Of a stretch of 64,000 bases of DNA, positions 4,700 to 56,006 are shown one piece after another. This stretch comes from Bacillota bacterium. GTDB taxonomy: Bacteria; Bacillota; Clostridia; Christensenellales; DTU072. The DNA is taken from the NCBI GenBank assembly GCA_009781445.1, contig WQYD01000003.1, positions 2,464 through 66,463 of the forward strand. Direction: 5' to 3'. Within the stretch, counting starts at the first letter, position 1. Each line of letters opens with the position of its first letter. Under the pieces are notes generated by a model. That model made no database searches. It was not told the DNA's origin and was given only the letters and a program-made list of their open reading frames with translations. The position numbers and the translations under genes were made by a program.

Positions 4700-4804
4700 T
4701 TTATAAGATATTTGATCCACGCCTGTTGCCTATTGCCTAATCAATAATGAGATTTAGAATCCACCATTGTGCGCTGTGCGCTGTGCGCTGTGCGTTGTGC
4801 GCTG
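4672..4804. repeat. Family-1 heptamer-array palindromic element
   Basis: (CAGCGCA)x2.5 - agtgaaggaatga - TTGCCTA-type array - core aataatgagatttagaatccacc - (TGTGCGC)x5. The closest copy is 44863-45015 in the opposite orientation. Confidence 0.9.
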
Positions 4805-5740: not shown

Positions 5741-6676
5741 TTACTCAACCGCTTCCGCGGGCGCGCTTTCTTTGGCTTTTTTGGCGCGCGGATAAGAGGC
5801 AAGGGCTGTGCCGAGGCTAAAAAATGCCACAAGCGAAATGGTATCCGCAGGGTAAGGGAATGAAAACGATTCTTTAGGCGGTGCGATAACCTCGCGTGAT
5901 TCATATTGCGCAGTTGCGCCTGATATATAGTTAAATCCCTTGTTGCAAAGTATAAGCGTAAGGGGGCAAAACTTTGAACAGGCAGTACACCTTAATCGGC
6001 TTAAGAATTCTTTTAATGTTAGTTCGTTACCGCTTTCGTCCTCATAAACTGCGTCTGGGTAGCTATATTTTCCGCTTGGCGCACCGCCCGATAACGCCGA
6101 ATTAACTTCGTTTTTATAGGTAAAGGGTGCAACAATGTTTTCCCTTTCAGAGGTAAAGCCAAGCGTAAACACCCCTATTCCGCCTGCCACAATCACCACC
6201 ACGGCAAGCGCAGTTTTGGCTACTGCCAAAGGAATCTTTTTATTATTTAAAATTCTTCTAACAGGAATATGAAGCCCCAAGTGAACAGAGGCAAGAATTA
6301 AAAATGAATAAGCCACAAACCTGTGGATATTTAGCCACTGCCCGATTTCCGCACGCGGGTGATAAATTACCCCGCTAATAATAAATCCGCTTATCAATAT
6401 GATTACCGCCTGCGCTAAAAGGGTGAAATTTATTAAAAATGCGAATTTGGTTTTTAGTTTAATCTTCCACGAAAACAGCAACGGAACTATTTTCTTAATG
6501 CTTTTAAAGTTCAAAGAAAGATGCAAAACGAACAAAGAAAGCAACACATATCCCAAAACTTCATGCAGTAAAACATTGCCGTTAATTAACCGCATGGATA
6601 ATAGAAGCAATATTAGCATAACCGCGTCAAGGCAGATTTTGGTGATTTTTAAAGCTTTCCGCTTTGTTCTTTCCAT
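5741..6676 (-). CDS. Integral membrane protein, DUF4405-like (cytochrome-b-like His pairs)
   Basis: Multiple TM helices carry H...G......H..N patterns (LHEVLGYVLLSLFVLHLSLN; NIHRF...SVHLGLH). The C-terminal part is Cys-containing. Confidence 0.45.
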   Translation of the reverse strand: MERTKRKALKITKICLDAVMLILLLLSMRLINGNVLLHEVLGYVLLSLFVLHLSLNFKSIKKIVPLLFSWKIKLKTKFAFLINFTLLAQAVIILISGFIISGVIYHPRAEIGQWLNIHRFVAYSFLILASVHLGLHIPVRRILNNKKIPLAVAKTALAVVVIVAGGIGVFTLGFTSERENIVAPFTYKNEVNSALSGGAPSGKYSYPDAVYEDESGNELTLKEFLSRLRCTACSKFCPLTLILCNKGFNYISGATAQYESREVIAPPKESFSFPYPADTISLVAFFSLGTALASYPRAKKAKESAPAEAVE

Positions 6677-6756: not shown

Positions 6757-6867
6757 TAGCTATCACAAAAATCCGATTGCGCTTACCTAAGGGGTTTTTA
6801 TCTACGGAAGCGTAACAATGGGTATAGTTGGAAACGGCTATGCCTCCCGTATTGGAAAGGAAGCAAT

Positions 6868-8886
6868 ATGAAGAAGTTTTTTAAAGTTACCACATTGTTA
6901 TTAGTTCTTGTGTTTGCAGGCACGCTTATTTTAACGGCTTGCAATGACGGAAATCCGAATAGTGCTATAAGCGATGACGATTACACGCTTACTATCAAAG
7001 GCTATTTAGATGACGGCAAAGATCTTGTAATCAAAAAGAGTGTTATCAAAGAGTTTTATGCAGAAAACCCCGATAAGCGCGCACCCGAAGACGGCGAACG
7101 CGTGGCAGGAATCCGCACCCACAAGGTAGACGGAAAGGACGAACTTATCACTTATGAGGTAAGCGGGGTTTATCTTGACGATATTTTGGCACTTTACGGC
7201 GAAAAAACCGCGTCTGACTTTGATGTTATGACGGTTATTTCCTTAGATGACGGCTATGAGAATATTTTAAAGCCCGACATTTTTGATACAACCAAGGGTG
7301 GCGTTAAAATGATTATTGCCCTATTTTATGAGGGTGAAGAATTAACGCAAGAATCCCAATCGGGCGCACTTCGTGCAGTTTTCCCCACAAAGGCTAACAA
7401 CGCTTGGGCAAAGCACCTTTGTGAAATAAGGTTTGGCGAAACCGCCCCTATGCAAGACGCAACCACCACTGCTTACTTTATGGAAACGCTAACGGACTTC
7501 GTGGATACCTTCTCAAAAGGTAACGCTTGGTACAGCGGTGTAAGCATTTCCGCACTTCTTGACGCAGGAATTCTTGCAGATAATGAAGATCTTTATATGT
7601 TCATTACAGGGTTTGACGAAGAAGAAGATTACCTCGTGGTAAAGAATTATCTTAATTACGCAAGCGCATTTTTAACTGATAAAATTTCTTTAACGGGCGA
7701 AAACGGGCAGTATAACGCACTTGCAAAAAGCCCTGTGTTTGACGGCGCGGATTATCTTAACGCATTAAAAATCAGCAACACAGCTTTCTTAACCCTTGGC
7801 AAAACCGCACTTGTTTCTTTTGCACAGCTTGCAGAACGCCACGCAAACGCACAAGGCGATTTAAAAGTTTCAGACATTTTAACCGAACTCAATATGCCTA
7901 AAACAGGCTTAGTTAATTACGAAGTTAAAGATACTAACGGTGAAATGGCGGTGCTTACCGCAGACATTTTCAACTCGGCAACTATTAAATCTGAGGGCGG
8001 TAATTTCGTACTTACCCACGCAAACGGCACGCTTAATATAGCTTCGTTTGTTTGTAAAGAATTTTCATTTTTGTTGGATATTCTTGACGGAAACGGTGAA
8101 TTGCTTCGCACAATAACCACCGCAGATTTAAATAAGCTTAAAGGTACAGTTCTGACGGTAACAAGTGGCGGTGGCGCAGTAACAGAATACCTCGGCTATG
8201 ATTTGGGGCAAGTTTTAACAACTGTTGGCGTGAGAGGCACATTTACAAGCATAACCGTAATAGAAAATGACGGTGGCGAATGGGGCAGAGATATTACCAC
8301 GCTTAACGGCGCGTTTATATCTGTGGGCATTGTAAATGCCAATAACGAACTAACAACGGACGCAAACGGCCCGCGTTATATAGGTGGCTTAAATGTGGGT
8401 GGCAGTAGCACCCGTTCAAGAACGGCTAAAATCCGCTTAGAGGGCTTTGAACCTGCACCCCTACCAATCTATTTTGACGACATTGAGGTTAATATTGAAA
8501 TCGTGCATGACGGAAATTTGCTATTCACTATAAAGAATGAACATTTTGCGGGAATAACCCCAACAGTTCTTATTGCCACCGATAACAACGACCGCCATTA
8601 TTTTTGCTACAGCATTGAGGCAATTTTGGCAAAGGCGAATGTGGACATTAGCGCGCTTGACTTTAACCGCATTGTTGCAAACGGCAAAACCTCACAGGGC
8701 GACCAAAACCAAGATAGGACTTACACCGCTTCGTCTTTGGCAAACACATATATCTCAGTGGCTTTTGGTAGCAATGCTTCAAATATAACCACCGATAGAG
8801 TAAGGTTCTTTATCTATGACCATGAGAAAAACCAAATCGGAACATTCTCACAGTTTACTTACAGGCTTAACCTTGTAACTATTTAA
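6868..8886 (+). CDS. Large extracytoplasmic lipoprotein (hypothetical)
   Basis: Lipobox LILTAC. 672 aa with several internally similar domains. One segment (GALRAVFPTKANNAWAKHLCEIRF) resembles the SUOX-fold Moco-domain C-terminal motif. Confidence 0.55.
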   Translation: MKKFFKVTTLLLVLVFAGTLILTACNDGNPNSAISDDDYTLTIKGYLDDGKDLVIKKSVIKEFYAENPDKRAPEDGERVAGIRTHKVDGKDELITYEVSGVYLDDILALYGEKTASDFDVMTVISLDDGYENILKPDIFDTTKGGVKMIIALFYEGEELTQESQSGALRAVFPTKANNAWAKHLCEIRFGETAPMQDATTTAYFMETLTDFVDTFSKGNAWYSGVSISALLDAGILADNEDLYMFITGFDEEEDYLVVKNYLNYASAFLTDKISLTGENGQYNALAKSPVFDGADYLNALKISNTAFLTLGKTALVSFAQLAERHANAQGDLKVSDILTELNMPKTGLVNYEVKDTNGEMAVLTADIFNSATIKSEGGNFVLTHANGTLNIASFVCKEFSFLLDILDGNGELLRTITTADLNKLKGTVLTVTSGGGAVTEYLGYDLGQVLTTVGVRGTFTSITVIENDGGEWGRDITTLNGAFISVGIVNANNELTTDANGPRYIGGLNVGGSSTRSRTAKIRLEGFEPAPLPIYFDDIEVNIEIVHDGNLLFTIKNEHFAGITPTVLIATDNNDRHYFCYSIEAILAKANVDISALDFNRIVANGKTSQGDQNQDRTYTASSLANTYISVAFGSNASNITTDRVRFFIYDHEKNQIGTFSQFTYRLNLVTI

Positions 8887-8892
8887 GAAGTA

Positions 8893-9747
8893 ATGAAAAA
8901 ACAACGGTTTTTGCAAGCGTTTAGCGCGTATGATTTGATTTTAATCGCGATGCTTACCGCGCTTGCCGTTGCTTTTAAAGTTGTAGTAAAAATGCTTATA
9001 GGACTCATTGCCACACCCCTCGGAATACCGGGGGGTGCTTTGGCAGGCGGATTTTATATGCTTTGGATTCCGCTTACCGTGGCAATAGTGGGAAAGCGCG
9101 GTTCGGCTTTTTTAATGACATTTGTGCAATGCCTTGTGATAATAATCACCGCCATGCCGGGTAGCCACGGTATTTGGACATTTGCCACATACCTGCCACC
9201 TGCTATTTTGGCGGAAGTGGTTATGCTACGCAGAACGCAGGCAAAGCCTGCGAGAGACGAGAGACGAGAGACGAGAGACGAGATAAGGAATGATAACAAT
9301 ATAATTACGAATGACGACTTACGACTTACGAATGATAGAGGTATCAATGAAGATTTCGCAAATCAAAATTCACCACCTCTCGTCTCTCGTCTCTCGTCTC
9401 TCGTCTCTAATCCCTCACAATACACAGTTCTTCACTTCATATTCGCCTGCATTCTTGCAAACCTTGCGGGGACATTCGGAAGTAACCTGCTATTCTTCCG
9501 CCTAGGGTTTGTGCCGTTGTTTTTTGCAATGTCGGCGGGTGCGTTTTCGGGCGCAATGGGCGGTGTGCTTGGGTATTTGGTTTATAAACTTGTGGCAAAA
9601 TCAGGCATTTTTACTGCACACGCAACGCAGTATAAAAATTATAACGAAGAATCGCCAAGTGAATTCTGTGCGCCGAAAGGTGAAACGCCGTGGGAAGAAA
9701 TGAGTCAGCGCACAGCGCATGAAGATATGAAGACGCTACGCTTGTGA
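8893..9747 (+). CDS. Putative ECF-transporter substrate-capture (S) component, carrying an in-frame repeat insertion
   Basis: Polytopic membrane protein (DLILIAMLTALAVAFKVV...) next to ECF A/T genes. Residues encoded by 9253-9408 come from a palindromic element. The C-terminal tail runs into repeat 9705-9958. Confidence 0.45.
   Translation: MKKQRFLQAFSAYDLILIAMLTALAVAFKVVVKMLIGLIATPLGIPGGALAGGFYMLWIPLTVAIVGKRGSAFLMTFVQCLVIIITAMPGSHGIWTFATYLPPAILAEVVMLRRTQAKPARDERRETRDEIRNDNNIITNDDLRLTNDRGINEDFANQNSPPLVSRLSSLVSNPSQYTVLHFIFACILANLAGTFGSNLLFFRLGFVPLFFAMSAGAFSGAMGGVLGYLVYKLVAKSGIFTAHATQYKNYNEESPSEFCAPKGETPWEEMSQRTAHEDMKTLRL
9253..9408. repeat. Family-1 element inserted in frame in a CDS
   Basis: Perfect 30-bp inverted arms, (GAGACGA)x4 at 9253-9282 and (TCGTCTC)x4 at 9379-9408, flank a centre with an ACGACTT array. 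Near-identical copy at 12556-12708. Confidence 0.9.
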
Positions 9748-9958
9748 AGTGCGCCTTTGGCGCGTGAAGACGCTACGCTTGTGAAGACGGCTTCGCCTTA
9801 TTATGGATAATTATATAAACATTCCGCCACGAAAGCAAAGCAACACTTCACAAGTGAACGATAGACGAACGGCTTCACAAGCGTAGCGTCTTCACAAGGC
9901 GAAGCCGTCTTCACTAAACTTCCACCACTATGCCCGTAGCCCAAACACCTATGCCCTA
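9705..9958. repeat. Family-2 element (GTGAAGAC-word type) with GCGCACA and CTATGCC array remnants at its ends
   Basis: Left arm gtgaagacgctacgcttgtgaagacggcttcgcctt is complementary to right arm aaggcgaagccgtcttcacaagcgtagcgtcttcac. The centre is ...cattcc...gcaaagcaaca. Confidence 0.85.
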
Positions 9959-9965
9959 AGAAAAT

Positions 9966-11366
9966 ATGAAAAAACTAACTTTCCTTATCTTCATTTCCCT
10001 ACTCTTCGCCCTGCTGTTTGCTTGTGGTGGTGATTTGGGTGAAAATTTATCCCCTCTTTATATTGAGGTAAACGGCGATATTGTCGGCGTGTCTTTAGCG
10101 GTGGATTTAAATAAGGTTGCAAAGGCGGAATTTAGCACGCAGGACGGAAATCTTAAAGGGCATGAACTTGATAAGATTCTTGCAAAAACTTCCCTAAACT
10201 TTAGCGGTGGCGGAAGCGTAATGATAACCGCTAAGGACGGAACAAGCGCGCTTATTGATTTGGAAAATGCCAAAGGTTGCTTTGTGGTTGAAACTGAAAA
10301 CGGCTTTAACCTCGTTGCGCCCAATCACCCCCGCGTGCTTGGCATTAAGGAAATTAAAGAACTAACGGTGATTTCCAAAAGTAAGGGTGCTGATTTTAAA
10401 ATCCTATACCTTTACGGCGAAGAAAGCTATTCCTTTGGAAATGCGAAAATGCTTTTTTACGAACAAGAAGGGGGCGTGCAAACGCTTAACGGAATAACTG
10501 CACGAAAGTTTACCCCCCTTGCAAAAGCCGTTACCGCGCAGTCTCTTGTGGGTGAAAGCTGTTTTATATATCTTGATAATTTCAATATTGTTAAGAGTGA
10601 TAACAGCAAGGTTTTCTCTTGGGAAAGCGGAAGAGTTTGTTATGACGGCGAAGCGGTTTTCGGCATTGTGGCAGGCGCGGGGGATTTAATTAGTAAAGCG
10701 TTTTATGATATTAAATCCGCACTTGACGGCGGTGAAAAGGTTATTGCTGTGCTACTGGACGGGCTTTCTTTAAACCAAGTGAATATCTTTAATTCTCAGT
10801 TAAGCATTTTAAAAAGCGGTTACTCTGCCACGGCTTCGGTGTATCCTGCGATTTCCAATGTTGCGCTTGCCTCAATTATCACAGGCGCAACCCCTTTTGA
10901 AACGGATATTTACGAAAGAAATGTAAAATTCCCTGCCGTCCCCGATATCTTTGACTATGCAACCGAAACGCTTGGGCTTGAAGCCATTTTCGTGGAAGGA
11001 AATTCCCGCCTTGTGCGCACAAATATAAAGCAGGAATTGCACCCTACAGACGATAACGGATTTACGGATTCAGCCGTGTATCAAACTGCGCGCCAAGCGG
11101 TTATAAATGAGGTTGATTTTGTGTTTGCGCATTTCCACGGAATAGACGATATAAATCATGATTATTCGCCGAACAGTGCCGAAGCCCTTGCAAAAATTAA
11201 AGAAATTGAGGATTATATTGAAAGGCTGATAAGGGGCTTCAGCGGTAAGCTGATAATCATTAGCGATCACGGGCATTCAACCGTGGACGGCAAGGGCGTA
11301 CACGAAGGTGTTTTTGATATTTATAATATGTTCGTACCGTATTACATTTTGGATATAACAGCATGA
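9966..11366 (+). CDS. Lipoprotein with alkaline-phosphatase-superfamily (nucleotide pyrophosphatase/phosphodiesterase-like) domain
   Basis: Lipobox LLFAC. Motifs VLLDGLS, HFHGIDDINHDYSP and IIISDHGHS. The N-terminal domain ends in a SUOX-like motif (NHPRVLGIKEIKELTVI). Confidence 0.6.
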   Translation: MKKLTFLIFISLLFALLFACGGDLGENLSPLYIEVNGDIVGVSLAVDLNKVAKAEFSTQDGNLKGHELDKILAKTSLNFSGGGSVMITAKDGTSALIDLENAKGCFVVETENGFNLVAPNHPRVLGIKEIKELTVISKSKGADFKILYLYGEESYSFGNAKMLFYEQEGGVQTLNGITARKFTPLAKAVTAQSLVGESCFIYLDNFNIVKSDNSKVFSWESGRVCYDGEAVFGIVAGAGDLISKAFYDIKSALDGGEKVIAVLLDGLSLNQVNIFNSQLSILKSGYSATASVYPAISNVALASIITGATPFETDIYERNVKFPAVPDIFDYATETLGLEAIFVEGNSRLVRTNIKQELHPTDDNGFTDSAVYQTARQAVINEVDFVFAHFHGIDDINHDYSPNSAEALAKIKEIEDYIERLIRGFSGKLIIISDHGHSTVDGKGVHEGVFDIYNMFVPYYILDITA

Positions 11367-11920
11367 AAAAACCGATTTCAAAAAATGCGATAATCGCCAT
11401 AGTTCTTATCTTCGTTCTCGCCGTGGCATTCGGGGTGGGGCTTTATTTGATTCTTGATTTTAATAAGGAATTTAAAGAACTTTACGAAAGCGAAAAAATC
11501 CGCATAATATCCAAAGATTTTGTGAAAGATTTTTCTTTTGACGAACTTAAAGAATTAGCAACGCCCAAAACCTTTACCGCAACTTACAAGCCAAACCAAC
11601 GCTTGCCGATAACGCGTGAGTACACGGGCTTTTGCCTTTTGGATATTTTTTCAGCACTTGATATTGAACTAAGCAAAAGTAAGGGCGTTTCATTCATGCC
11701 GTCTGACGGGCGCGAAACGGTTTATAATATAAACGACATACTAACCCCAAACAATGTGTTTATTGCTTTTAAGTGGGACGGAAAGGCTTTCCCCAAAGGC
11801 AATGCGGGCATTTCGCCGTATCCAGACGAAAACGGCGGGCCTTTTGTGGTTATCCGTGCCAAAGATTTAGTAAGCACGAACAGAGTAAAGTGGCTTGTGC
11901 AAATTGAGGTTTTATTTTAA
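11363..11920 (+). CDS. Membrane-anchored protein with SUOX-fold (Moco-domain-like) module
   Basis: N-terminal TM. The C-terminal GGPFVVIRAKDLVSTNRVKWLVQIEV resembles the G.P.R..vP......VKW...IEV motif of YedY/sulfite-oxidase-type domains. ATGA overlap with the upstream gene. Confidence 0.45.
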   Translation: MKKPISKNAIIAIVLIFVLAVAFGVGLYLILDFNKEFKELYESEKIRIISKDFVKDFSFDELKELATPKTFTATYKPNQRLPITREYTGFCLLDIFSALDIELSKSKGVSFMPSDGRETVYNINDILTPNNVFIAFKWDGKAFPKGNAGISPYPDENGGPFVVIRAKDLVSTNRVKWLVQIEVLF

Positions 11921-13350
11921 TGGAAACCGTGCTTGAAATTAAAAATTTAACCTTATCTTACGGCGAAAGGATTTTGTGTGAAAACCTTAATTTTAGCGTG
12001 AACGCAGGCGAAATTGTGGGGGTAAGGGGCGGTAACGGCACAGGAAAATCCACCCTGATAAAGCGGATTTCCGCACTTATGCCCGCAAATTTAAACAGTG
12101 AAGGCAGTGTGCTTTTGTACGGTGCGGAAACGCTTGATTTAAACATTAAGGATAGGTGTACCGCCATTGCCACGATTTTCCAAGAACCCGAAGCACAGCT
12201 TTTTTCCTCTTTCGTGGAAGACGAACTTTCCTTTGCAAACGAAAACCTGCGTGTTCAGCGTGAAGAGATAAGAAAAAGGATAAACGCCGTTTCAGAACTT
12301 ACGGGCATTAGCCATTTAACTGATAGCAAATCCGAAAAGCTATCAGGCGGTGAAAAACAGCTTGTGGCAATAGCCTCTGCTATTTCTTCTTATCCGCGCG
12401 TAATCCTCGCAGACGAAATCACCGCACGGCTTGATTTAGAAGCCCGCACAAGAATAAGAACCCTCTTAAAAGATTTTGCCAAAGCAGGCGGTGCGGTTAT
12501 ATTCGTTCACCACACGGAAGAAGACGGGGGGGTTTGTGATAGGGTTATTGAAATTAGAGACGAGAGACGAGAGACGAGAGACGAGATAAGGAATAATAAT
12601 ATAATTACGAATGACGACTTACGACTTACGAATGATAGAGGTATCAATAATGATTCTATAAATCAAAACTCACCACCTCTCGTCTCTCGTCTCTCGTCTC
12701 TCGTCTCTAATCCCCAACAAACAATCGTCCTCAACAACCTTTCTTTCTCATACCTCAAAACTAAAGCCCTGATAAGCAATTTAAGCATGAGTTTTGAAAG
12801 CGGTAAGTGCTATCTTATTACAGGCAAAAACGGTGCAGGGAAAACTACTCTCGGCAAACTTATTTTGGGGCTTTTAAAGCCTCAAAGCGGAAGTGTGGAA
12901 ATCGGCGGTGAGTGCGTGGCTAAAATGCGGATAGGCAGTGTGGCAAAGAAGATAGGTTATGTGTTTCAGAACCCTGATTTGCAGTTTTTCACAAATTCCG
13001 TTGGGGAAGAATGTGAGTTTAGTTTTAAACTTACAAGCGCATTAACCGATAGTGTAAAAGAAAGAATCAATGATTGTTTAGTTAAGTTTGGGCTACAAGA
13101 CTTTAGAGAACGGAATCCCTTAACGCTGTCTACAGGCGAAAAGCAAAGGCTTGCCCTTGCCATAACTTCTTTAAGCGGTGTTAGTTTTTTATTGCTTGAC
13201 GAACCCACTTCTTCTCTTGATAATGAAGCTAAAAACTTTGTGGTTGATTATATTAAACGCTTTGTGGCGGACGGTGGTGGCGCGATAATTATCACGCATG
13301 ACAGCACGCTTTTAAGCCACTTGCCAGAGGGGGTAATTTATGAAATTTGA
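11920..13350 (+). CDS. ECF/ABC transporter ATPase, fused duplicated NBDs (EcfA-EcfA'), with in-frame repeat insertion in the linker
   Basis: Two Walker A sites (GGNGTGKST, GKNGAGKTT), two signatures (LSGGEKQ, LSTGEKQ) and Walker B motifs (ILADE, LLLDEP). TAATG overlap with the upstream gene. Confidence 0.85.
   Translation: METVLEIKNLTLSYGERILCENLNFSVNAGEIVGVRGGNGTGKSTLIKRISALMPANLNSEGSVLLYGAETLDLNIKDRCTAIATIFQEPEAQLFSSFVEDELSFANENLRVQREEIRKRINAVSELTGISHLTDSKSEKLSGGEKQLVAIASAISSYPRVILADEITARLDLEARTRIRTLLKDFAKAGGAVIFVHHTEEDGGVCDRVIEIRDERRETRDEIRNNNIITNDDLRLTNDRGINNDSINQNSPPLVSRLSSLVSNPQQTIVLNNLSFSYLKTKALISNLSMSFESGKCYLITGKNGAGKTTLGKLILGLLKPQSGSVEIGGECVAKMRIGSVAKKIGYVFQNPDLQFFTNSVGEECEFSFKLTSALTDSVKERINDCLVKFGLQDFRERNPLTLSTGEKQRLALAITSLSGVSFLLLDEPTSSLDNEAKNFVVDYIKRFVADGGGAIIITHDSTLLSHLPEGVIYEI
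12556..12708. repeat. Family-1 element inserted in frame between the two ATPase domains
   Basis: Same 30-bp GAGACGA/TCGTCTC arms as 9253-9408. It differs by one 3-nt indel and a few central substitutions, and is translated in the same frame. Confidence 0.9.
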
Positions 13351-14068
13351 TCCCCGTACAAAGCTATTTATTATCGCAGTTTTAACCGCTGTTTCGGTGT
13401 TTGCGCCAAGCATTTTTTACCTCTTGGGAATCCTATTTGTTACGCTTGTTTTTGATATTATCTTAAAGGTGAATTTTTTAACCGTGCTTAAGCGGTTAAA
13501 GTTTTTATTATCTGCAATCGTGTTTGTGTCCTTAATTCAAAGTTTAACAATTAAGGGCGAACCGCTTATCACAATAAACGGTTTTACCTTAATTAGCTAT
13601 CAAGGCTTAATGCTTGGGCTTGAATTTTTGGTGCGCATGAGTATAATTATATTTGCCTCGGCAATCGCGCTTACCTCAAGCGGTAAGGAAATGACGGACG
13701 CGCTTATTCGGTTAAAGTTTCCTTATGAGGTTGCTTTTATGGTTAGCACGGCAATATCGTTTTTGCCAATGTTCCGTGAGGAATTTTTGCACCGCGTTAC
13801 AGCGGTTAAGCTAAGGGGCATTGATATTAAAAAGCTACCGATAGGCAAAAAATTTAAGGTTTATGCTTTTGTTCTGTCCCCCGCGGTGGTGGGTGGCGCG
13901 ATAAAAAGCCGTGCGCTTGCAGATTCAATGACTGCCAAAGCCTTCCGCGCGCACAGTTCGCGCACAATGCTTAGAGAATTAAAGTTAAAACCGCGTGATT
14001 TTATTGCTATAATATTAGTAGCCTTACTTATGGCAGGGTTCTTTGCAACCCTCATGATTATCGGCTAA
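13340..14068 (+). CDS. ecfT: Energy-coupling factor transporter transmembrane (T) component, CbiQ family
   Basis: 242-aa polytopic protein directly after the double ATPase, with an 11-nt overlap. Typical EcfT size and the coupling-helix region ...ALADSMTAKAFR. Confidence 0.7.
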   Translation: MKFDPRTKLFIIAVLTAVSVFAPSIFYLLGILFVTLVFDIILKVNFLTVLKRLKFLLSAIVFVSLIQSLTIKGEPLITINGFTLISYQGLMLGLEFLVRMSIIIFASAIALTSSGKEMTDALIRLKFPYEVAFMVSTAISFLPMFREEFLHRVTAVKLRGIDIKKLPIGKKFKVYAFVLSPAVVGGAIKSRALADSMTAKAFRAHSSRTMLRELKLKPRDFIAIILVALLMAGFFATLMIIG

Positions 14069-14099
14069 CACGGCAAAAAATGCGGTTATAGGGGGATTT

Positions 14100-14750
14100 A
14101 TGAAAATTTTTAGCGTAACAGGCTTAACGGGTTCGGGAAAAACCACGGTTATTGAAGCTATCATTAGGGAACTTAAATCAAGAGGTTTCAGCGTTGGCAC
14201 GGTTAAAAACATTCACGCGGAAAGTTTTAAAATGGACACTGAGGGAAAAAATACTTGGCGACACCGCAACGCAGGCGCGGATACGGTGGTGGCGCACGCG
14301 CACTATGAAACGGATATTTTATATAATTACCGCCTTCCGCTTCACACTCTTTTAAAGCATTTTACTGAGGATTTTGTGATTCTTGAGGGAATGGGCGAAG
14401 CAAGTGTGGAAAACATTGCCGTGTGCAAAGAGGGTGAAACGCCTCAAATCGGCGATTTAACCGTTGCCGTTAGCGGTAGGTTTGCAAACTCAGGGGTTAA
14501 GGAATTTAAGGGGTTGCCTGTGTTTAACCTAAGTGATATAAAAGCCCTTACGGATTTAATTATAAATAAGGTTTCTTTTGTGCCTGCTAAGGATTTAATT
14601 CATGGCGGAAATGTTGAGGTAAAGGTGAACGGCGAAGTGCTTACCCTTGTGCCGTTTGTGCAAAATATTTTAAAAAATGCGGTTCTTGGGGTAATTAAGG
14701 AACTTAGAGGCTATAACGAAGGCGCAGAAGTTGAGGTTATTTTAAAATGA
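14100..14750 (+). CDS. mobB: MobB-like P-loop protein (molybdopterin-guanine dinucleotide biosynthesis adapter) with C-terminal extension
   Basis: MKIFSVTGLTGSGKTTVIEAIIRELKSRGFSVGTVKNIH...KNTWRHRNAGADTVV matches my recollection of the MobB N-terminal domain. At 216 aa it is longer than typical MobB. Confidence 0.65.
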   Translation: MKIFSVTGLTGSGKTTVIEAIIRELKSRGFSVGTVKNIHAESFKMDTEGKNTWRHRNAGADTVVAHAHYETDILYNYRLPLHTLLKHFTEDFVILEGMGEASVENIAVCKEGETPQIGDLTVAVSGRFANSGVKEFKGLPVFNLSDIKALTDLIINKVSFVPAKDLIHGGNVEVKVNGEVLTLVPFVQNILKNAVLGVIKELRGYNEGAEVEVILK

Positions 14751-15292
14751 AAAACAAGGTAACCTTTAGCGAAAACGGAACGGTTATTAAAGAATTTTTA
14801 ACCTTAAAGGGCTATAAGAAAGAACTTTCCGTGCTTAAAAAAATGAATTGCAACCTTGCCCCAAAAATTATCCGCACGGAAAAAGGCATTATTGAAATGA
14901 GTTTTATAAGCGGTGTAAGCCTTATTGATAAACTTATTGACTTAGAAAAGAACGGCGAATGCCCTGCCCCTACCGCTTCTGCGCTTGCAGAGTTTTTTAA
15001 GGTTTTCCACAGCTTAAATAAATATAAATCATTGGGGGATTTAAATTTTCATAACTTTATTGCCACTGAAAACGGTGAAATTTTCGGTATAGATTACGAA
15101 GAAGTAACGGTGGGAAGTATCTACAGCACTACCGCACGCGCCCTTGCCTTTCTTTATTCGTATAATGATTTATCTGATACAACCAAAGAAACATTTTCCC
15201 AAACCCTTTTATCCGAACTAAAAATCCCCCCCCACCGAATAATTACCCGAATTTTCCGCCATATTATCTTTTTAAAAAAGAGAAGGGGTTGA
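14747..15292 (+). CDS. Small atypical protein-kinase-like protein (Bud32/RIO/Kdo-kinase-like)
   Basis: 181 aa with the pattern ...IIEMSFISGVSL...LGDLNFHNFIATENGEIFGIDYEE (catalytic-loop and DFG-like). ATGA overlap with mobB. Confidence 0.4.
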   Translation: MKNKVTFSENGTVIKEFLTLKGYKKELSVLKKMNCNLAPKIIRTEKGIIEMSFISGVSLIDKLIDLEKNGECPAPTASALAEFFKVFHSLNKYKSLGDLNFHNFIATENGEIFGIDYEEVTVGSIYSTTARALAFLYSYNDLSDTTKETFSQTLLSELKIPPHRIITRIFRHIIFLKKRRG

Positions 15293-15381
15293 AATCTATA
15301 TAAACTTATGGTATAATTTTCCTTAAGGAAACAATGAATAGACAGACGGTATTTATTCAGTGATTCATTAAAGGTGATATA

Positions 15382-16278
15382 ATGAGTTCTTTTTGGGGTA
15401 AAACTTTAAAGCTAAGTATGTTCGGCGAAGTTCAGGGCGACATTGTGGGCGGGACGCTTCATGATTTTCCTATAGATGTTGCTGTTAATTTGGATAGGAT
15501 TAAGCTGGGATTAAAGCTAAGGCAAGGTTCTGTAAATTTTGCAAGCGCGAACAGAGCGGAAGATAGGCCAGAAATTATTTCGGGCATTACCGCAGGCGTA
15601 ACTAACGGCGCGCCGATTACCGTGCAGTTTCAAAATAAACAAAAAACGGATAGGGTTTTCAGCAGTTATTTTTCACCGCGGTTTACGCTTCCAATGGTGT
15701 TTTTCGGAATGCTTGCGTCCGATTATCTTTCCAAACGCGGAATTGAGATTTGTTCTCACATTAAATCCGTGGGTTCAACTGAGGACGATTCTTTACCGCT
15801 TGTGTGCGATCAAGTTTTGTTTGACAGGCTGAACGCAAGCCCCCTTGCCACAATAAATCCAGACGCAAGAAAGCAAATGGTTTCATTGCTTGAAAGCGTG
15901 AAAGCCACAGGGGATTCCGTGGGCGGTACGGTGGAAACGGTGGTTGTGGGCATGCCCGATAGCCTAAAAAGCCCTCTTTTTGACAGCTTGGATGCGCGCA
16001 TTGCAAGGACGGTTTTTCCCATTCCGGGGGTGAAAGCGGTTAGCTTTGATAAACTTATAACCAATTCGGTTGTTATGACAACCACATTCCGCCCCACACC
16101 CACAGTTAAGCAACAGCAAGCCTTTTTGCAACAGCAGGCAGATTCTTCCAAGCACATGGATTTAGATTTAAAGCGCGAACATGTGCCGTGTGCAGGAATA
16201 AGAGGTTCTATTGTGGTAACCTCTGCCGTGGCACTTGCGGTTCTTGACGCACTTCTTGAAAGGGATTTAAGAGTATGA
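15382..16278 (+). CDS. Chorismate-synthase-like protein, short and divergent (possibly non-catalytic)
   Basis: Colinear similarity to AroC (FGEVQG vs FGESHG; GDSVGG; C-terminal ...VPCAGIRGSIVVTSAVALAVLDALL). It is only 298 aa and core motifs are replaced or missing. Confidence 0.5.
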   Translation: MSSFWGKTLKLSMFGEVQGDIVGGTLHDFPIDVAVNLDRIKLGLKLRQGSVNFASANRAEDRPEIISGITAGVTNGAPITVQFQNKQKTDRVFSSYFSPRFTLPMVFFGMLASDYLSKRGIEICSHIKSVGSTEDDSLPLVCDQVLFDRLNASPLATINPDARKQMVSLLESVKATGDSVGGTVETVVVGMPDSLKSPLFDSLDARIARTVFPIPGVKAVSFDKLITNSVVMTTTFRPTPTVKQQQAFLQQQADSSKHMDLDLKREHVPCAGIRGSIVVTSAVALAVLDALLERDLRV

Positions 16279-17030: not shown

Positions 17031-17205
17031 GTATGATGTGCGCCTTTGGCGCATGATGATATGATGACGCTACGCTAATGATGGGCGGGCAAGCCCGCAT
17101 GAACTGATTTAATTTAGCATTCCTTAATGTTGCGAAGCAACACATCATAAGGCGAAGCCGACATCATACCATCATAAGCGAAGCGACATCATAAGCGCAC
17201 GCGCC
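17031..17205. repeat. Family-2 element (ATGATG-word type)
   Basis: Left half has ATGATG words separated by GC-rich mini-palindromes. The conserved centre is gggcgggcaagcccgcatgaactgatttaatttagcattccttaatgttgcgaagcaaca. The right half has CATCAT words. Confidence 0.85.
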
Positions 17206-20534: not shown

Positions 20535-20546
20535 ACGCATTATGCA

Positions 20547-20683
20547 ATGCACAACGCACAACGCACAGCGCACAATGAAGGATTAATTCAGAATTAAGAA
20601 TTCAGAATGCAGAATTATGGATTAATTAACTAATAATGAGATTTAGAATCTATCATTGTGCGCTGTGCGCTGTGCGCTGTGCA
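20547..20683. repeat. Family-1 heptamer-array palindromic element
   Basis: (CA[A/G]CGCA)x4 - aatgaaggattaatt - (CAGAATT-type)x4 - atggattaattaactaataatgagatttagaatc - (TGTGCGC)x3.5. Confidence 0.9.
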
Positions 20684-20706
20684 TTTTTAACGCTTTGCGT
20701 TAAAAA
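20684..20706. terminator. Bidirectional terminator-like palindrome overlapping a stop codon
   Basis: tttttaacgc-ttt-gcgttaaaaa. The right arm contains the TAA (complement) of CDS 20700..21614. Confidence 0.5.
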
Positions 20707-21663: not shown

Positions 21664-22431
21664 TTAAATTTGAGGATTGGGGCTATTAACCGCCTTGTTC
21701 TTTTTTCCGTAAAACGCTTTCGCCGATGCCACCGCGCCTTTTAAAAGATATTTAAGGAATATCTTTCCAAGTTTGTAAGAAATTATTGCAAGAATTCCAA
21801 GAACCCCTGTGGCAATAAGCAATCCCCCTGCCGTGAATAACGCCCACGGCGTTCCCTCTGTGGCAGAAAGCACCGCCCCTGGGATAACCGCAAGCAGGCA
21901 AGCAAAGGAAGAAACCGCAAGCCCAAGAATCGTACCGCCCACCGCAAACACCGCACTTATAAACAGCACAAAAAACACAATCCCCACAGGAATCAAAATC
22001 GGCGCACTAAAAAGCCTTGCAACCATTGCAATGGTACTGCCTTTTTTAGAGGGTGCAGCTTGCAGGTTGCAGGGTGCAGGGTTGGATTGGTGATTGGTGA
22101 TTGGTGGTTGGTGATTGGTGGCGGAATTATTATTATTAAATAATCCTTCATTCTGAATTCTGAATTCTGAATTCTTAATTAGTCCTTCATTGTGCGCTGT
22201 GCGCTGTGCGCTGTGCATTGAAGAAAGCCTTTCCCCCGCAAGTTCAGCTTGAATTTGACGGCTAATCATTCTTATATCGCCAAGGTTATGCACCACGCGA
22301 TATTCATTTTCGCCTGCCTCAATTTTATCGCTGATAAGTTCGTCATAATAATTTAGCACCCTGTTAAGTTCGTCTGCACTGAACCCTTTTAGGTAAGACG
22401 ATAGTACACTTAAAAATTCATGTTTGTTCAT
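21664..22431 (-). CDS. DUF1700-like membrane protein with repeat-derived linker
   Basis: N-terminus MNKHEFLSVLSSYLKGFSADE...YYDELI is DUF1700-like and the C-terminal half has TM helices. The central ~55 aa are encoded by element 22051-22217. Confidence 0.6.
   Translation of the reverse strand: MNKHEFLSVLSSYLKGFSADELNRVLNYYDELISDKIEAGENEYRVVHNLGDIRMISRQIQAELAGERLSSMHSAQRTAHNEGLIKNSEFRIQNEGLFNNNNSATNHQPPITNHQSNPAPCNLQAAPSKKGSTIAMVARLFSAPILIPVGIVFFVLFISAVFAVGGTILGLAVSSFACLLAVIPGAVLSATEGTPWALFTAGGLLIATGVLGILAIISYKLGKIFLKYLLKGAVASAKAFYGKKNKAVNSPNPQI
22051..22217. repeat. Family-1 module concatenate inside a CDS (non-palindromic)
   Basis: TGCAGGG-type array, GGTGATT array, CTGAATT array, tccttcat junctions, then a (TGTGCGC)x3 array. 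All are read through in frame on the minus strand. Confidence 0.85.
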
Positions 22432-24065: not shown

Positions 24066-27000
24066 TTATCTACGCGGTGAACGGCTGTAACGGCGTCCTG
24101 CGTGAGTTCTGTCTTTCCGCTTGAAAATCATGCTAAAGAAGAACAGAATGATTAACAGCGCAACACCGCCGATTGCAAACCCAAGAACATAATTCATATA
24201 TTCAGGCATTTCAGGAATCCTTAATCCGCCCACGCTTATGGAACGCACAGGGATATAATTCTCTGAATCAAAGTTCTCGCCTGCAAACAGCACCTCAACC
24301 ACAAACGCTTGGTTCGCGCTTATGCCGTTAAACACATTACTGCTTTGCCCCGGTGCAATTTCATTGCCCTCCAAATCAATCAATCTGTACACAGTGCCTG
24401 CGGGCGCATTGGTTGAAATAACATGGATAGTACCGTCCTCATTTCTTGTTACGCGGATATCAATATTAAATTCTGCCCTGTTTATAGTTAGAATTGCACC
24501 TATGCGGGCAACCTCAAAGCCGTAGTGCATTATAACAGCGGTAACATCGTATTGCCCTGCGTTCACTGGGAATGTGGTAAGCTGAAGCCCGTCCGACATT
24601 CTTATAAAGCTATAGTAAACCGATACGCCCTCTTGGGTAAAGCCTTGCGGTTGCGAACCGAAGTTCACTGCCCCTGGGGATTTCGCATTGCCGTCATACA
24701 CATATTCTGCGTCCCCCACAACTATTGCATTGAACGCATTGGCGGTAATCCTCAATGTGGTTGTTACCGTTTCAAATGTGTAGTTATCCGCCACTATTGA
24801 AAGCACGAATTCGTAATCACCAAGAAGCGTGGGGTTAGCTTCGCTTCCGTCTTTATAATAATTGGTAAACACTGTGATATTCTCAATATCGTTTCCGAAC
24901 AGCCCCAATATATTATATGTTGCTTGCTTAGCCGTACCGCTGTACTTGTGTTCAAGCCCTGCGATTGACGCGGTAAGAATTGCTTTAAAGATTTCAAAGT
25001 GGAACATGGTTTCGCCGTCATAGCTATAGTTTCCGAATTCGTCTTCAAAGCTGATAACCACAATGTATTTGCCTGCACCGCTTGCGTTTTCCACGATTTC
25101 ATAACCGCTTGGCACGCTGATTCCGAATGCGCCCCCGCTTGCGTTTTTGGGTGCGGGATTTCCTGCATTTACATATGTTTCACGCATGAAAATCATATGC
25201 GGAATAACCTTATAATCTTCGTCATACTGCGCAAATAAATTGATATTTGCGTTACCGCCGTTGAAGCTTAATTCGCTAATAAATTCTTCTTTTAGTTCCA
25301 CTTCGCGTGCGTGAATATCAAAGGAATAAGCGTAAACCTCAGTGAGTTCGCTGTTAGGATTTTGAAGCCTTACTTCCACGCTGTAAGTTCCCACATTACG
25401 CACTTGGCTTACTGGAATCTCATTTCCGTTTCTAAAGTACACGAATATTAAATCGCTTGAAATTTCCTCACCGCCGTCAAAAGCGAATGCTTTTAAGGTT
25501 TGCGTAAGCGCGCCGATTCCGTTTTCTTTTGCAGAGAACTGGAATGTTTTTCCGTTAGGCGCGTCCGATTCGTCAAGCACAGCTTCCGCCCTGCTTATCG
25601 TAAATGTTATGCCCGAAACCACGAAGGGGTGAATTGTGTTAGGCGAAGAAACGGTGAACGAAACAACGAAACTTCCTGCGCCCCTAATTTCCTTACCGCC
25701 TAAATCTGCCACGAACGATAAGCCGTGCGCATTGGGCAGGTTGGTTATTACAGGGGTTGTGATTTCGCCGTTGTACACCCTTGTGGCGTTATTGAATAAA
25801 AGTTCGGCTTGCAAGAAGTCCTCTGTGTACATTGCCCTTGCAATCACGAACACCGCGCTTAGCCCTGCGCTTGGCATTTCAAAATTAGAATCGTTTACCA
25901 CAAGGTTAACCACATATTCGCCTGCGTTCACGGGGACTACTTGGGTGCTTAAATCGTCTGAACGGAAGAAGTATTTTTCTAAATCCGCAACGGTGAAGCC
26001 GTTTCCTTGGGCATCTTTAAATAAGAAGGAAGCAATGTAATGCTTGCTTAGCCCGTCATACACCACCGCGTTTCCAGTTGCCTCTGCAAGGCTTAAAGCC
26101 CTTGGCATAACAACGATTTCAAAAGCGGTTTCGCTTAACTCATAATATGCGTTTGCCAAGGTGTTAAGGCTTAAGGTAACCAAGTACGCGCCTGCGTTCT
26201 TAACCGCGCTTGCAACCGCGCCGTTAAGCCTTATATCCTTATCAATAGTAAGGGCAACGCCACTTACAACAGGGAATGCTTGTGTGGAAGCCACCACTTC
26301 AAACTCTTCGCCAGAGTAAACGAACTGCGTGCTTGAAGTAAGTGAGGACTGAACCAAAATCTTGCTTATATAAATAAGGATACTAATATTAGCTGAGGAC
26401 GCGTCAAGCAACACATTACCGCCAACCACATTCACGGTTATGGCGTTTGCACCCACGCTAAGAGGTTGGTTGCTTATGAATCCGCCGAACTGCGTGCTTG
26501 CAATAAAGCTGTTCACAATGAATGCGTTATCAGGGAATAAGGAATTAAGAACTGAGTTAATCTCTTCCGTAATACCGCCTTGGAACGCGCTAAACGATGC
26601 AAGATATTCCACCCTTTCGCTTTCGCCGATTGAGATATCAATGCTAAAGTTTTCCACCGTAAACGGCGCAACATTTAGCGTGATTACATATGTTGCATTG
26701 TAATAAACACTGTTTTCATTGAGGCTTAAAGCGAACAAATCGTTATAGCTGTTCACGGTTAATTCATTAAGATTTACACCGCCGTTTGGTTGAAAGATTA
26801 GCCCCTTACTTGCAAAGTTAGCCTCTGCCCTGTTCACGGCAAATGCTCTGCCAAGTTCGTCAATATCATTTATATCAAGGGTATCCGTGCTAACGCTTTC
26901 CACGGTGTAATCACTTAAGGAATAAAGTTTTGAAAGCTCAATTTCCGCAAGCACATTAGCACGGCGCATTGTAAGCGTTACGGATAAATCCGCCACCTCA

Positions 27001-32341: not shown

Positions 32342-32470
32342 TCAGCGCGAAGCGCACAATGGTGGTTTTTTTAATAATGATATTTAGAATCCTTCTCGTT
32401 TCATGTTTCTCGTTTCATGTTTCTCGTTTCATGTTTCTCGTTTCACACGCTACGCATACGCGTAGCGCGC
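32342..32470. repeat. Family-1 element with 14-nt tandem repeat, in the 5' leader of the giant gene
   Basis: cagcgcgaagcgcacaatggtgg - core taataatgatatttagaatcc - (TTCTCGTTTCATGT)x4 - hairpin cgctacg..cgtagcg. Confidence 0.85.
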
Positions 32471-32668: not shown

Positions 32669-32833
32669 CAGCGCACAGCGCACAGCGCACAGCGCACAGC
32701 GCACAGCGCACAATGGTGGATTCTAAATCTCATTATTGGTTAACTAATCCATAAATTCGTACTTCGTACCTTGTACTTCGTACCTAAATAAATCATTCCT
32801 TCACTGTGCGCTGTGCGCTGTGAATTGTGCGCT
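32669..32833. repeat. Family-1 heptamer-array palindromic element
   Basis: (CAGCGCA)x6 - aatggtggattctaaatctcattatt (core, reverse) - TTCGTAC-type array - aatcattccttcac - (TGTGCGC)x3. Confidence 0.9.
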
Positions 32834-35940: not shown

Positions 35941-36099
35941 TATGAATTATGGAATTTTTTATTAAGAATTTATCTTAATTAGATTTAGAATCCACCATTC
36001 GTAAATCGTAAGTCGTAAGTCGTCATTACTCTTAATGAGATTTAGATTCCACCATTGTGCGCTGTGCGCTGTGCGCTGTGCGCTGTGCGCTGTGCGCTG
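35941..36099. repeat. Family-1 element (one-armed; duplicated core)
   Basis: Degenerate AAGAATT part - core - (CGTAAGT)x3 - core - (TGTGCGC)x6. The inner part is nearly identical to 22905-23016. Confidence 0.9.
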
Positions 36100-45813: not shown

Positions 45814-46025
45814 TGGTGATTGGTGATTTGTGGTTGGTGGTTGGTATTTCAGCGCACAGCGCACAACGCACAGCGCACAGTGAAGGAATTATTTATTTAG
45901 ATACGAAGTGCGAATTGTGAATTACCTAATTTTCAGTTACCGACTGAAAAATTGCTTGTGTTAATTTGTTAATAATGAGATTTAGAATCCGCCATTGCGC
46001 GCTGTGCGCTGTGCGCTGTGCGCTG
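45814..46025. repeat. Family-1 composite element
   Basis: GGTGATT-type array (45814-45846) - (CAGCGCA)x4 - agtgaaggaatt - degenerate GTACGAA array - small hairpin tttcagt/actgaaa - core - (GCGCTGT)x3. Confidence 0.9.
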
Positions 46026-46048
46026 ATTAGTGCGGAACGCGTTCCGCA

Positions 46049-51392: not shown

Positions 51393-51611
51393 TGAAGACG
51401 GCTACGCCTTATGAAGTCGCGTGCGCTGCACGCTTGTGAAGACGGCTACGCCTCATGAAGACGCTACGCTTATGGAGCGCGGGCGCGCCCGCATGAACTG
51501 ATTAAATTTAGCATTCCTTCATGTTGCAAAGCAACACTTCACAAGTGAACGAAGTGAACGACTTCACAAGCAAACTTGTTTGCGTCTTCACGCGCAAAAG
51601 GCGCACTTCAT
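51393..51611. repeat. Family-2 element (GTGAAGAC/ATGAAG-word type)
   Basis: Left words are gtgaagac/atgaag plus GC-rich mini-hairpins. The centre is gcgcgggcgcgcccgcatgaactgattaaatttagcattccttcatgttgcaaagcaaca. Right words are cttcac. Confidence 0.85.
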
Positions 51612-54700: not shown

Positions 54701-54726
54701 AAAAACCGCCGAAAGGCGGTTTTTTC
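54701..54726 (+). terminator. Rho-independent terminator
   Basis: aaaaaccgcc-gaaa-ggcggttttt followed by T. Repeat 54727-54856 starts immediately after it. Confidence 0.75.
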
Positions 54727-54856
54727 AGCGCACAATGCACAGCGCACAATGATTGATTCTAAATATCATTATAGATTAATCCATAATTCTGCATTCTGAA
54801 TTCTTAATTCTGAATTAATCCTTCATTGTGCGCTGTGCATTGTGCGCTGTGCGCTG
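54727..54856. repeat. Family-1 heptamer-array palindromic element
   Basis: (CAGCGCA/CAATGCA)x3 - aatgattgattctaaatatcatta (core, reverse) - AATTCTG-type array - aatccttcat - (TGTGCGC/TGTGCAT)x4. Reverse orientation of 20547-20683. Confidence 0.9.
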
Positions 54857-54858
54857 AA

Positions 54859-55820: not shown

Positions 55821-55855
55821 TTACTTAAGTATAGAATCTAAGTGTCGCGGTGTGT

Positions 55856-56006
55856 CAGCGCACAATGCACAGCGCACAGCGCACAATGAAGGATTCTAAA
55901 TCTTATTATTAGTTAACTAATCCATAATTCGTACTTCGTACCCTGTACTTCGTACTTAAATAAATAATTCCACCATTGTGCGCTGTGCATTGTGCGCTGT
56001 GCGCTG
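55856..56006. repeat. Family-1 heptamer-array palindromic element
   Basis: (CAGCGCA/CAATGCA)x4 - aatgaaggattctaaatcttattatt (core, reverse) - TTCGTAC array - aattccaccat - (TGTGCGC/TGTGCAT)x4. Confidence 0.9.

Follow-up and report, generated by a model that had tools for sequence, protein, structure and literature searches.

Energy-coupling factor (ECF) importers that take up vitamins under riboswitch control include YkoEDC and ThiT under thiamine pyrophosphate (TPP), RibU under flavin mononucleotide (FMN) and the cobalamin ECF systems. The locus described here lies in a 64-kb metagenome contig piece from a Clostridia-type bacterium (the window, meaning the whole 64,000-nt stretch that was analysed), and like these systems it joins a dedicated S-component of the YkoE type with EcfA, EcfA' and EcfT in one operon behind a cofactor-sensing leader with a platform that sequesters the ribosome-binding site (RBS) or forms a terminator. 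It differs from them in its leader, which belongs to the molybdenum cofactor/tungsten cofactor (Moco/Tuco) class, and in carrying genes for further parts, namely several extracytoplasmic modules of pterin-binding type, an ecto-nucleotide pyrophosphatase, and also MobB and a kinase. We know of no ECF importer with extracytoplasmic binding modules, an ecto-pyrophosphatase, MobB or a kinase as accessories, and of no bacterial transporter for the Mo/W cofactor or its pterin precursors; to our knowledge, the cofactor is generally held to be made de novo by every prokaryotic user, owing to its lability. We propose that the operon encodes a dedicated (group I) ECF importer or salvage system for a pyranopterin cofactor that is repressed by the cell's own W/Mo cofactor, and we put this reading at somewhat better than even (about 0.55).

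Two lines of earlier work bear on this proposal. PruR is a protein of the sulfite oxidase (SUOX) fold that lacks the Mo-ligating cysteine, and its pterin binding has been shown experimentally (PMC11194511). Moco riboswitch RNAs without the P3 stem were correlated with tungsten-cofactor metabolism, with two P3-less RNAs ahead of 'putative sulphite oxidases' in Syntrophomonas wolfei left as unexplained exceptions (Regulski 2008, PMC2408646); in Eubacterium limosum this class controls tupABC, WOR1 and other operons, including tungstate and iron ABC transporters (PMC11725836). Our full-text literature searches returned no described ECF/MobB/SUOX-module system and no bacterial uptake of Moco or molybdopterin (MPT), and the searchable literature contained no paper joining 'molybdenum cofactor', 'S-component' and 'ECF'. 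An earlier reading of the same DNA, made from its letters alone (the sequence-only reading), had likewise known of no system of this composition.

A riboswitch-led operon of eight genes

The open reading frame (ORF) list of the window contains eight co-directional ORFs on the plus strand between 6868 and 15292, and the operon unit begins at 6762 with the riboswitch, upstream of the first gene. The features are as follows.

6762-6876, plus strand: Moco/tungsten-cofactor riboswitch (RF01055), 'Tuco' type without the P3 stem (cmscan)
6868-8886, plus strand: protein P1, a 672-aa lipoprotein with an N-terminal SUOX/PruR-like module, a middle region and C-terminal 'LipoB'-type module(s) (Pfam, hhalign)
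8893-9747, plus strand: protein P2, a 284-aa ECF S-component, YkoE/HtsT-like (Pfam ABC_cobalt)
9966-11366, plus strand: protein P3, a 466-aa lipoprotein with an N-terminal SUOX-like module, a middle beta domain and a C-terminal ENPP/NPP-type domain (Pfam, AF2, Foldseek)
11363-11920, plus strand: protein P4, a 185-aa membrane-anchored protein with one SUOX/PruR-like module (AF2, Foldseek, profiles)
11920-13350, plus strand: fused EcfA-EcfA' ATPases (TIGR04520, TIGR04521)
13340-14068, plus strand: EcfT, the transmembrane coupling component (Pfam CbiQ)
14100-14750, plus strand: MobB-family P-loop protein with a conserved C-terminal small domain (TIGR00176, profile)
14747-15292, plus strand: protein P8, a 181-aa minimal protein-kinase-like protein of Bud32/RIO type, predicted to be cytoplasmic (family alignment)
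5741-6676, minus strand: divergent DUF4405 membrane protein with a Cys-rich extracytoplasmic tail (Pfam DUF4405, 33.5 bits)

The eight-gene order and the domain guesses of the sequence-only reading were borne out by Pfam and NCBIfam profiles. Its statement that every start from 11363 onward overlaps the preceding stop was correct for four junctions, with overlaps of 4 nt between P3 and P4 (11366/11363), 1 nt between P4 and EcfA-A' (11920/11920), 11 nt between EcfA-A' and EcfT (13350/13340) and 4 nt between MobB and the kinase (14750/14747), but not for MobB, which starts 31 nt past the EcfT stop. A gap of 218 nt precedes the P3 gene.

The riboswitch scored 57.7 bits against a gathering score of 36 (E 2e-13) and aligned to the full model (1-135) with the P3 hairpin deleted; the P3 stem is also absent in all eight other copies with alignments shown. 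Its 3' part spans the RBS (GGAAAGGAAG), and its last helix contains the P1 start codon ATG at 6868. An RBS and ATG inside the aptamer is the arrangement of a translational OFF switch, as judged from the sequence. In 14 other loci (38-67 bits; L003, L005, L008, L009, L010, L011, L014, L015, L016, L018, L021, L024, L025 and L027), RF01055 likewise stands directly 5' of the homologue of the first gene. It was not detected in L019 and L022, or where the contig stops before the leader; elsewhere it was present. A 13-bp terminator with a T-run overlaps the 3' end of the aptamer in L010, and a terminator-like hairpin follows the aptamer in L011. These aptamer-linked terminators would fit repression by the ligand, the mode of control to be expected for supply genes.

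Exported modules, transporter and cytoplasmic partners

The sequence-only reading had noticed that three exported proteins end domains with motifs resembling the C-terminus of the Moco domain of YedY/sulfite oxidase proteins. An AF2 model of P4 (pLDDT 78.9) gave PruR as its best PDB match in Foldseek (7kom, E 5.6e-6, TM-score on target 0.66; also 7kos and 7kou), followed by chicken sulfite oxidase, SoxCD, SorA, plant-type nitrate reductase and YedY (E 7e-6 to 1e-4 for 1sox, 2blf, 2xts and 1xdq). Pfam assigned Oxidored_molyb (PF00174) to residues 37-192 of P1 (29.7 bits against a gathering score of 24) and gave a sub-threshold match for P4 (18.7 bits). Word-indexed homologue searches yielded 2-3 relatives of P4 and P1; an exhaustive profile search revealed a P4 family of 261 representative proteins, mostly membrane-anchored and about 170-190 aa long, and PF00174 was matched individually by 35 of 40 aligned members. 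The family profile found PruR first in the PDB (E 0.004), then SorA. With hhalign, the P4 family matched the N-domain of P1 (probability 97.4%, E 1.3e-11), the N-domain of P3 (96.9%, E 1.4e-10) and the modules of LipoB, a lipoprotein of related loci (98.3%, E 2e-14). The C-terminal half of P1 was not significant against the P4-family profile, but its residues ~537-636 matched the LipoB profile (95.8%); this part of P1 is at least one fused LipoB module, which is a separate gene in most other genomes. A phmmer search of P1 against the PDB returned noise only.

The SUOX fold of P1, the P3 N-domain and P4 is thus supported by Foldseek, PF00174 and hhalign, and no unrelated fold was assigned. The count of three modules has to be raised, since P1, P3 and P4 carry them as claimed and the C-terminus of P1 adds a LipoB module. 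The resemblance to Moco domains extends to the fold and not to the metal site. No Mo-ligand Cys is conserved in any module: the sole invariant Cys of the P1 family is the lipobox Cys25, the P4 subfamily alignment has no conserved Mo-coordinating Cys, and in the alignment with PruR the ligand position is K, T or S in the P4 family. A Trp corresponding to the PW motif of PruR is not conserved in the modules either. P1 and P3 have lipoprotein signal peptides (lipoboxes LTAC and LFAC, with the lipobox Cys invariant among homologues) and no twin-arginine motif, and P4 has an N-terminal anchor helix. A canonical SUOX/YedY enzyme was ruled out by the lack of both the Mo-ligating Cys and a twin-arginine translocation (Tat) signal. 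Because PruR is a Cys-less SUOX-fold pterin binder, we read the modules as putative pterin-receptor-like domains and not as SUOX enzymes.

The C-terminal domain of P3 belongs to the Phosphodiest family (Pfam, E 1.4e-14). In an AF2 model (pLDDT 91.6), the top Foldseek matches of the catalytic domain were ENPP1, ENPP3 and the NPP of Xanthomonas (Xac), at E 5e-8, and the P3 profile matched Xac NPP (2gsn) with the DxxxH and DHG metal motifs aligned. D265, G266, D394, H398, D434 and H435 are invariant in the family, and the nucleophile Ser297 is nearly so. ENPP/NPP enzymes act on nucleotides and dinucleotides, splitting their pyrophosphate and phosphodiester bonds. The alkaline-phosphatase-superfamily phosphodiesterase lipoprotein of the sequence-only reading can accordingly be specified as ENPP/NPP-like with intact predicted catalytic motifs.

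Profiles also identified the ECF transporter. P2 matched ABC_cobalt (32.6 bits against a gathering score of 25.2) and, weakly, Trep_Strep; its family alignment is conserved, the S-component is retained in 18 loci, and its profile found no relative in the PDB. EcfA-A' matched TIGR04520 (E 5e-91) and TIGR04521 (E 1.5e-76), with both scores kept slightly below the equivalog cut-offs by the fusion, and EcfT matched CbiQ (77 bits). By these predictions the ECF module is complete, with S-component, EcfA, EcfA' and EcfT in one operon, as the sequence-only reading had it. In public records, the homologue of the S-component is called 'thiamin/hydroxymethylpyrimidine transport permease'; a thiamine/hydroxymethylpyrimidine (HMP) transporter was ruled out, as the riboswitch is of the wrong class (Moco/Tuco).

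Two genes of the transporter contain a palindromic element of ~160 nt, one copy at 9253-9414 (162 nt) in a loop of P2 and the other at 12556-12714 in the EcfA/EcfA' linker. It is bounded by an array of four AGAGACG heptamers in tandem and by the reverse complement of that array. Both copies are translated in the same frame (RDERRETRDEIRN...SPPLVSRLSSLVSNP), which a 3-nt indel between them preserves, and the P2 insert is missing in all 14 aligned homologous S-components. The element resembles Rickettsia palindromic elements. It also looks like a member of a modular repeat family that is dense in the window, in which a common AT-rich core (TAATGAGATTTAGAATCC) lies between short arrays of different heptamers (TGTGCGC, GAATTCA, GTACGAA, CGTTTCT and others). 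Such repeats occur in both orientations at many intergenic sites, including 4738-4796, 20537-20685, 22125-22232, 32355-32449, 32675-32833, 36026-36098, 45842-46026, 54711-54858, 55848-56005 and 57269-57466.

The MobB-like protein scored 93.2 bits with TIGR00176 (cut-off 76.2). Its profile matched solved MobB structures at E 3e-15 (4nkr, 4oyh and 2f1r at E about 1e-15), and its homologues match the MobB/FeS architecture of PRK14494 over their full length. A generic P-loop NTPase, the alternative that the sequence-only reading had named, was ruled out by the TIGR00176 score and the structure matches, which establish the MobB assignment. The window MobB lacks a Cys-rich insert of ~30 aa of Fe-S type (CCxxCGxxC...C) that is kept in 15 of 16 aligned homologues at the same operon position. 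In M. extorquens, MobB together with MoeA1 was found essential for W insertion (PMC13197769).

P8 gave weak, sub-threshold matches to RIO1 (16.6 bits), to Bud32 (NF011461, 27.5 bits) and to Rio2 in the PDB (E 0.003), and it weakly matched both Rio2 and Bud32 structures. Lys, Glu, DxNxxN and D(F/Y)E catalytic residues are invariant in 16 sequences of its family, and the gene follows MobB in 17 other loci. The mini-kinase suggested by the sequence-only reading is therefore retained as a predicted kinase-like protein with every protein-kinase-like catalytic residue present. In L003 (9765-11243), the kinase is fused to a domain of ~300 aa with weak similarity both to the TCKD kinase domain of TiaS and to 'methanogenesis marker protein 11' (TIGR03280, E 2e-12); a FecCD/ABC/Peripla_BP_2 transporter lies downstream of the fusion.

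Conservation, genomic neighbours and other features of the window

We scanned one genome per species with a 10-sequence alignment as the query. The scan found 21 loci, all in Clostridia-type metagenome-assembled genomes (MAGs), two of them labelled Bacteroidaceae; the relatives of the window are from Christensenellales and other Clostridia. Using tblastn with the window proteins, we found that about 18 distinct loci (30-65% identity) share a single gene order: a P1-like lipoprotein, often a LipoB lipoprotein, the S-component, P3, P4, EcfA, EcfA', EcfT, MobB and the kinase. The P4 gene adjoins ecfA, directly upstream, in all loci. The same order recurring in about 18 distinct genomes is far beyond chance and rules out a lineage-specific accidental gene cluster, and the conserved neighbourhood that the sequence-only reading had asked about was indeed present among Clostridia/Christensenellales MAGs.

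Other gene contents were also found. L018 is a reduced variant with the riboswitch, a short SUOX lipoprotein, the S-component, P4 and EcfAA'T, and with ThiF/MoeB-like and tungsten aldehyde:ferredoxin oxidoreductase (AOR) genes adjacent; L008 has the riboswitch and a lone P4 homologue. An RnfG-like FMN_bind lipoprotein gene adjoins the operon in about 11 loci. In L010, L014 and L018, tungsten AOR genes are found at a distance of 1-3 kb from the operon. In L010 (2391-5634), genes for an AOR, a ThiF/MoeB-like protein and an FMN_bind lipoprotein stand on the same strand just 5' of the riboswitch, and the stop of the ThiF-like gene overlaps the FMN_bind start.

We searched the window and the loci (about 20 kb each) with E. 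coli MoaA, MoaB, MoaC, MoaD, MoaE, MoeA, MobA and Mog. Homologues of moaA, moaC, moaE, moeA, mogA and mobA were found in neither; only MoeB/ThiF-like genes and MobB were found. No Moco-related gene was present outside the operon among 30 further window ORFs, a set that excludes a 2753-aa ORF and about nine ORFs of at least 110 aa beyond 52.4 kb. A GGDEF/EAL partner of the PruR-DcpA kind was absent within the operon. Public records call the operon genes 'molybdopterin-dependent oxidoreductase', 'YedYZ catalytic subunit', 'thiamin/HMP permease' and 'hypothetical protein', and this annotation is misleading.

The divergent DUF4405 gene (5741-6676) occupies the place that the RnfG-like FMN_bind lipoprotein gene has in other loci, where DUF4405 is not conserved. 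The window has no FMN_bind homologue, and the DUF4405 tail has no similarity to FMN_bind. In the tail are CTACSKFCP...C and an 'ISGAT' motif; the likeness of the latter to a flavinylation site we mention as a remark. The DUF4405 protein is a possible redox accessory of uncertain membership in the system.

Downstream of the operon, a strong promoter-like site at 15289-15317 (11/12 matches) stands right after the last operon gene. This is a weak hint, suggesting that the chorismate-synthase-like and short-chain dehydrogenase/reductase (SDR) genes that follow form a separate unit; the promoter and terminator scans of the window gave no excess over shuffled expectation and served as hints. The chorismate-synthase-like ORF (15382-16278) is only 298 aa long, with Pfam matches in three stretches, and the SDR gene next to it overlaps. 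Elsewhere in the window, a single ORF of 2753 aa lies at 24066-32327 on the minus strand. A 91-nt direct repeat at 17061-17151 and 51455-51545 (87% identity, both copies intergenic) contains a GC-rich hairpin (GGGCGGGCAAGCCCGC) and could represent either a structured small RNA or a repeat of terminator type.

Proposed function, rival explanations and known systems

The riboswitch, the pterin-receptor-like modules, the ecto-nucleotide pyrophosphatase, the ECF transporter, MobB and the kinase in combination argue for a supply system for the pterin part of the W/Mo cofactor. The substrate, the direction of transport and the roles of the accessory proteins are what we infer from the computed families and folds, riboswitch, synteny and catalytic motifs. 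Candidate substrates would be MPT, the Mo/W cofactor, or a form derived from its guanine or cytosine dinucleotides. In the proposed mechanism, the cell's own tungsten or molybdenum cofactor would repress expression through the P3-less riboswitch. The Cys-less PruR-like modules on P1, the N-terminus of P3 and P4 would catch the pterin ligand at the outer face of the membrane. The ENPP-like domain would split the pyrophosphate or phosphodiester bond of the molybdopterin guanine and cytosine dinucleotide forms (MGD, MCD), leaving a mononucleotide-free pterin as used by AOR-type tungstoenzymes. P4 may hand this product to the YkoE-like S-component for import by EcfAA'T, after which cytoplasmic MobB would take over the pterin before tungsten insertion, and the small kinase may re-phosphorylate or otherwise activate it. 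In most genomes, the RnfG-like FMN-binding lipoprotein could protect or restore the reduced state of the oxidation-prone ligand. The uptake of a pterin, molybdopterin or nucleotide-linked cofactor, as the sequence-only reading had hypothesized, is supported by the SUOX fold of the modules, by the MobB identity and by the conserved neighbourhood; import itself we infer. The riboswitch, which we regard as the decisive new evidence, strengthens the hypothesis considerably, together with the PruR-like fold, the ENPP-like catalytic domain and the breadth of the synteny. The broader statement is tentative and falls somewhat short of even odds: that some anaerobic Clostridia (Christensenellales and relatives) scavenge pre-formed pyranopterin (MPT, Moco or Wco, with dinucleotide forms that other microbes release among them) through a surface receptor relay, an ecto-pyrophosphatase, the ECF transporter, MobB and the kinase, which would be the first bacterial route of Mo/W-cofactor uptake and the first ECF system with extracytoplasmic binding proteins.

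Several points weigh against the importer reading. ECF importers normally work without extracytoplasmic binding proteins. Free Moco and the tungsten cofactor (Wco) are very labile, which makes an extracellular cofactor pool questionable. L016 and L028 consist of P1, a single-module lipoprotein, P3, P4 and FMN_bind, with the riboswitch in L016, and have no adjacent ECF, MobB or kinase genes. The loci, of about 20 kb, show only MoeB/ThiF-like genes, and the absence of moaA and moaC is a result for these loci and not for the whole genomes. The pockets of PruR-type proteins are described as too short for full Moco (PMC11194511), and the ligand might therefore be a smaller pterin. The riboswitch alone is no proof of a supply role, because Tuco riboswitches also precede cofactor-using enzymes such as WOR1 (PMC11725836).

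If the cofactor moved outward, the ECF transporter would export a dinucleotide cofactor made with MobB, and P3 would trim it and load it onto the SUOX-fold lipoproteins, forming a redox enzyme with the FMN-binding lipoprotein. The FMN_bind gene next to the operon in about 11 loci, and inside it in L016 and L028, would suit such extracytoplasmic maturation, as would the lipoprotein signals, which are not of the Tat type and would make loading in the cytoplasm impossible. The P3-less RNAs ahead of 'putative sulphite oxidases' in S. wolfei (PMC2408646) also favour it, and there is a precedent for ECF-dependent extracytosolic cofactor trafficking in the FAD secretion proposed for Listeria RibU/FmnA/EetB (PMC9973259). 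However, the Mo/W-coordinating Cys of SUOX enzymes is absent in every module, the nearest relatives are the non-enzymatic PruR binders, and no mobA gene is nearby in the window or the loci. RBS sequestration and terminators imply repression when the cofactor is plentiful, which is the opposite of what a consumer or exporter needs. We consider this explanation unlikely.

Two other substrates were weighed. Uptake of tungstate, molybdate or another inorganic or metal species for the cofactor, with some other role for the SUOX-like modules, would parallel the Tuco-controlled tupABC and iron transporters; in E. limosum, ABC transporters for tungstate and for iron are under P3-less riboswitches (PMC11725836), MobB is tied to tungstate insertion (PMC13197769), ECF transporters for Co and Ni exist, and L003 has the FecCD/Peripla_BP_2 ABC transporter downstream. 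The S-component is of the YkoE/HtsT-like vitamin type, however, and not like CbiM or NikM, and oxyanion uptake would leave no obvious role for the pterin-binding-type modules, four to six in number, or for a nucleotide pyrophosphatase and a kinase. We consider an oxyanion or metal importer improbable. Still harder to sustain is a system for uptake or sensing of thiamine/HMP or of a non-molybdopterin pterin (neopterin, monapterin, or a folate- or methanopterin-derived compound), in which the link to Moco would be indirect. PruR, with its truncated pocket, does bind small non-Moco pterins (PMC11194511), and the public name of the S-component homologue points to thiamine/HMP; but the aptamer is Moco/Tuco, and not TPP or tetrahydrofolate, in 15 loci, MobB is a conserved member of the operon, genes for AOR and ThiF lie nearby, and the operon contains no GGDEF/EAL partner of the PruR-DcpA kind.

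On balance, we regard the operon as the first candidate, most probably, for a bacterial system that scavenges a ready-made cofactor of molybdopterin type. If this is true, Moco/Wco or MPT would be a shared 'vitamin' in anaerobic communities such as those of the gut and of digesters, with a bearing on W- and Mo-dependent metabolism, AOR/WOR enzymes and short-chain fatty acid formation. It would also place MobB, a protein of long uncertain role, in a concrete context, show the PruR-type pterin-binding fold at work in nutrient capture as well as in signalling, and add a new, experimentally tractable regulon member to the P3-less riboswitch class.

Comparison with described systems places the locus further. 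PruR, of the PruR-DcpA signalling system of Proteobacteria, shares with it small exported SUOX-fold domains without the Mo-ligating Cys and is the best PDB match. Here, in contrast, the PW motif and a DcpA-type GGDEF-EAL partner are missing, the host is a monoderm Clostridia bacterium, and the modules occur in multiple copies, one of them fused to a phosphodiesterase, and are linked with a transporter and a Moco riboswitch; the exported modules are PruR relatives and not members of the PruR-DcpA family. MsrPQ (YedYZ) also has an exported SUOX-fold protein; the window has a divergent gene for a b-type-like membrane protein (DUF4405), and public annotation gives the YedY name to P1 homologues. 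MsrP, however, is an enzyme with a Mo-ligating Cys and a Tat signal, whereas the window modules have no such Cys and a lipoprotein signal. The Tuco regulon of E. limosum (tupABC, WOR1, fetABC, focA) shows the same P3-less class in a Clostridia relative, together with tungsten AOR-family cofactor users, and none of its reported operons is an ECF, SUOX-module or MobB system (PMC11725836). The RibU/FmnA/EetB system of Listeria ties ECF parts to extracytoplasmic cofactor-dependent lipoproteins and FMN-binding proteins (PMC9973259); it handles flavins, with proposed FAD export, and is not known to have a riboswitch of the Moco class, MobB or SUOX modules. The NadN-PnuC-NadR pathway of Haemophilus, an analogy only, differs in its protein families, substrate class (NAD) and transporter type, and follows the same sequence that we propose here: trimming of a dinucleotide cofactor outside the cell by an ecto-nucleotide pyrophosphatase, uptake of the trimmed part by a transporter, and trapping by a kinase in the cytoplasm.

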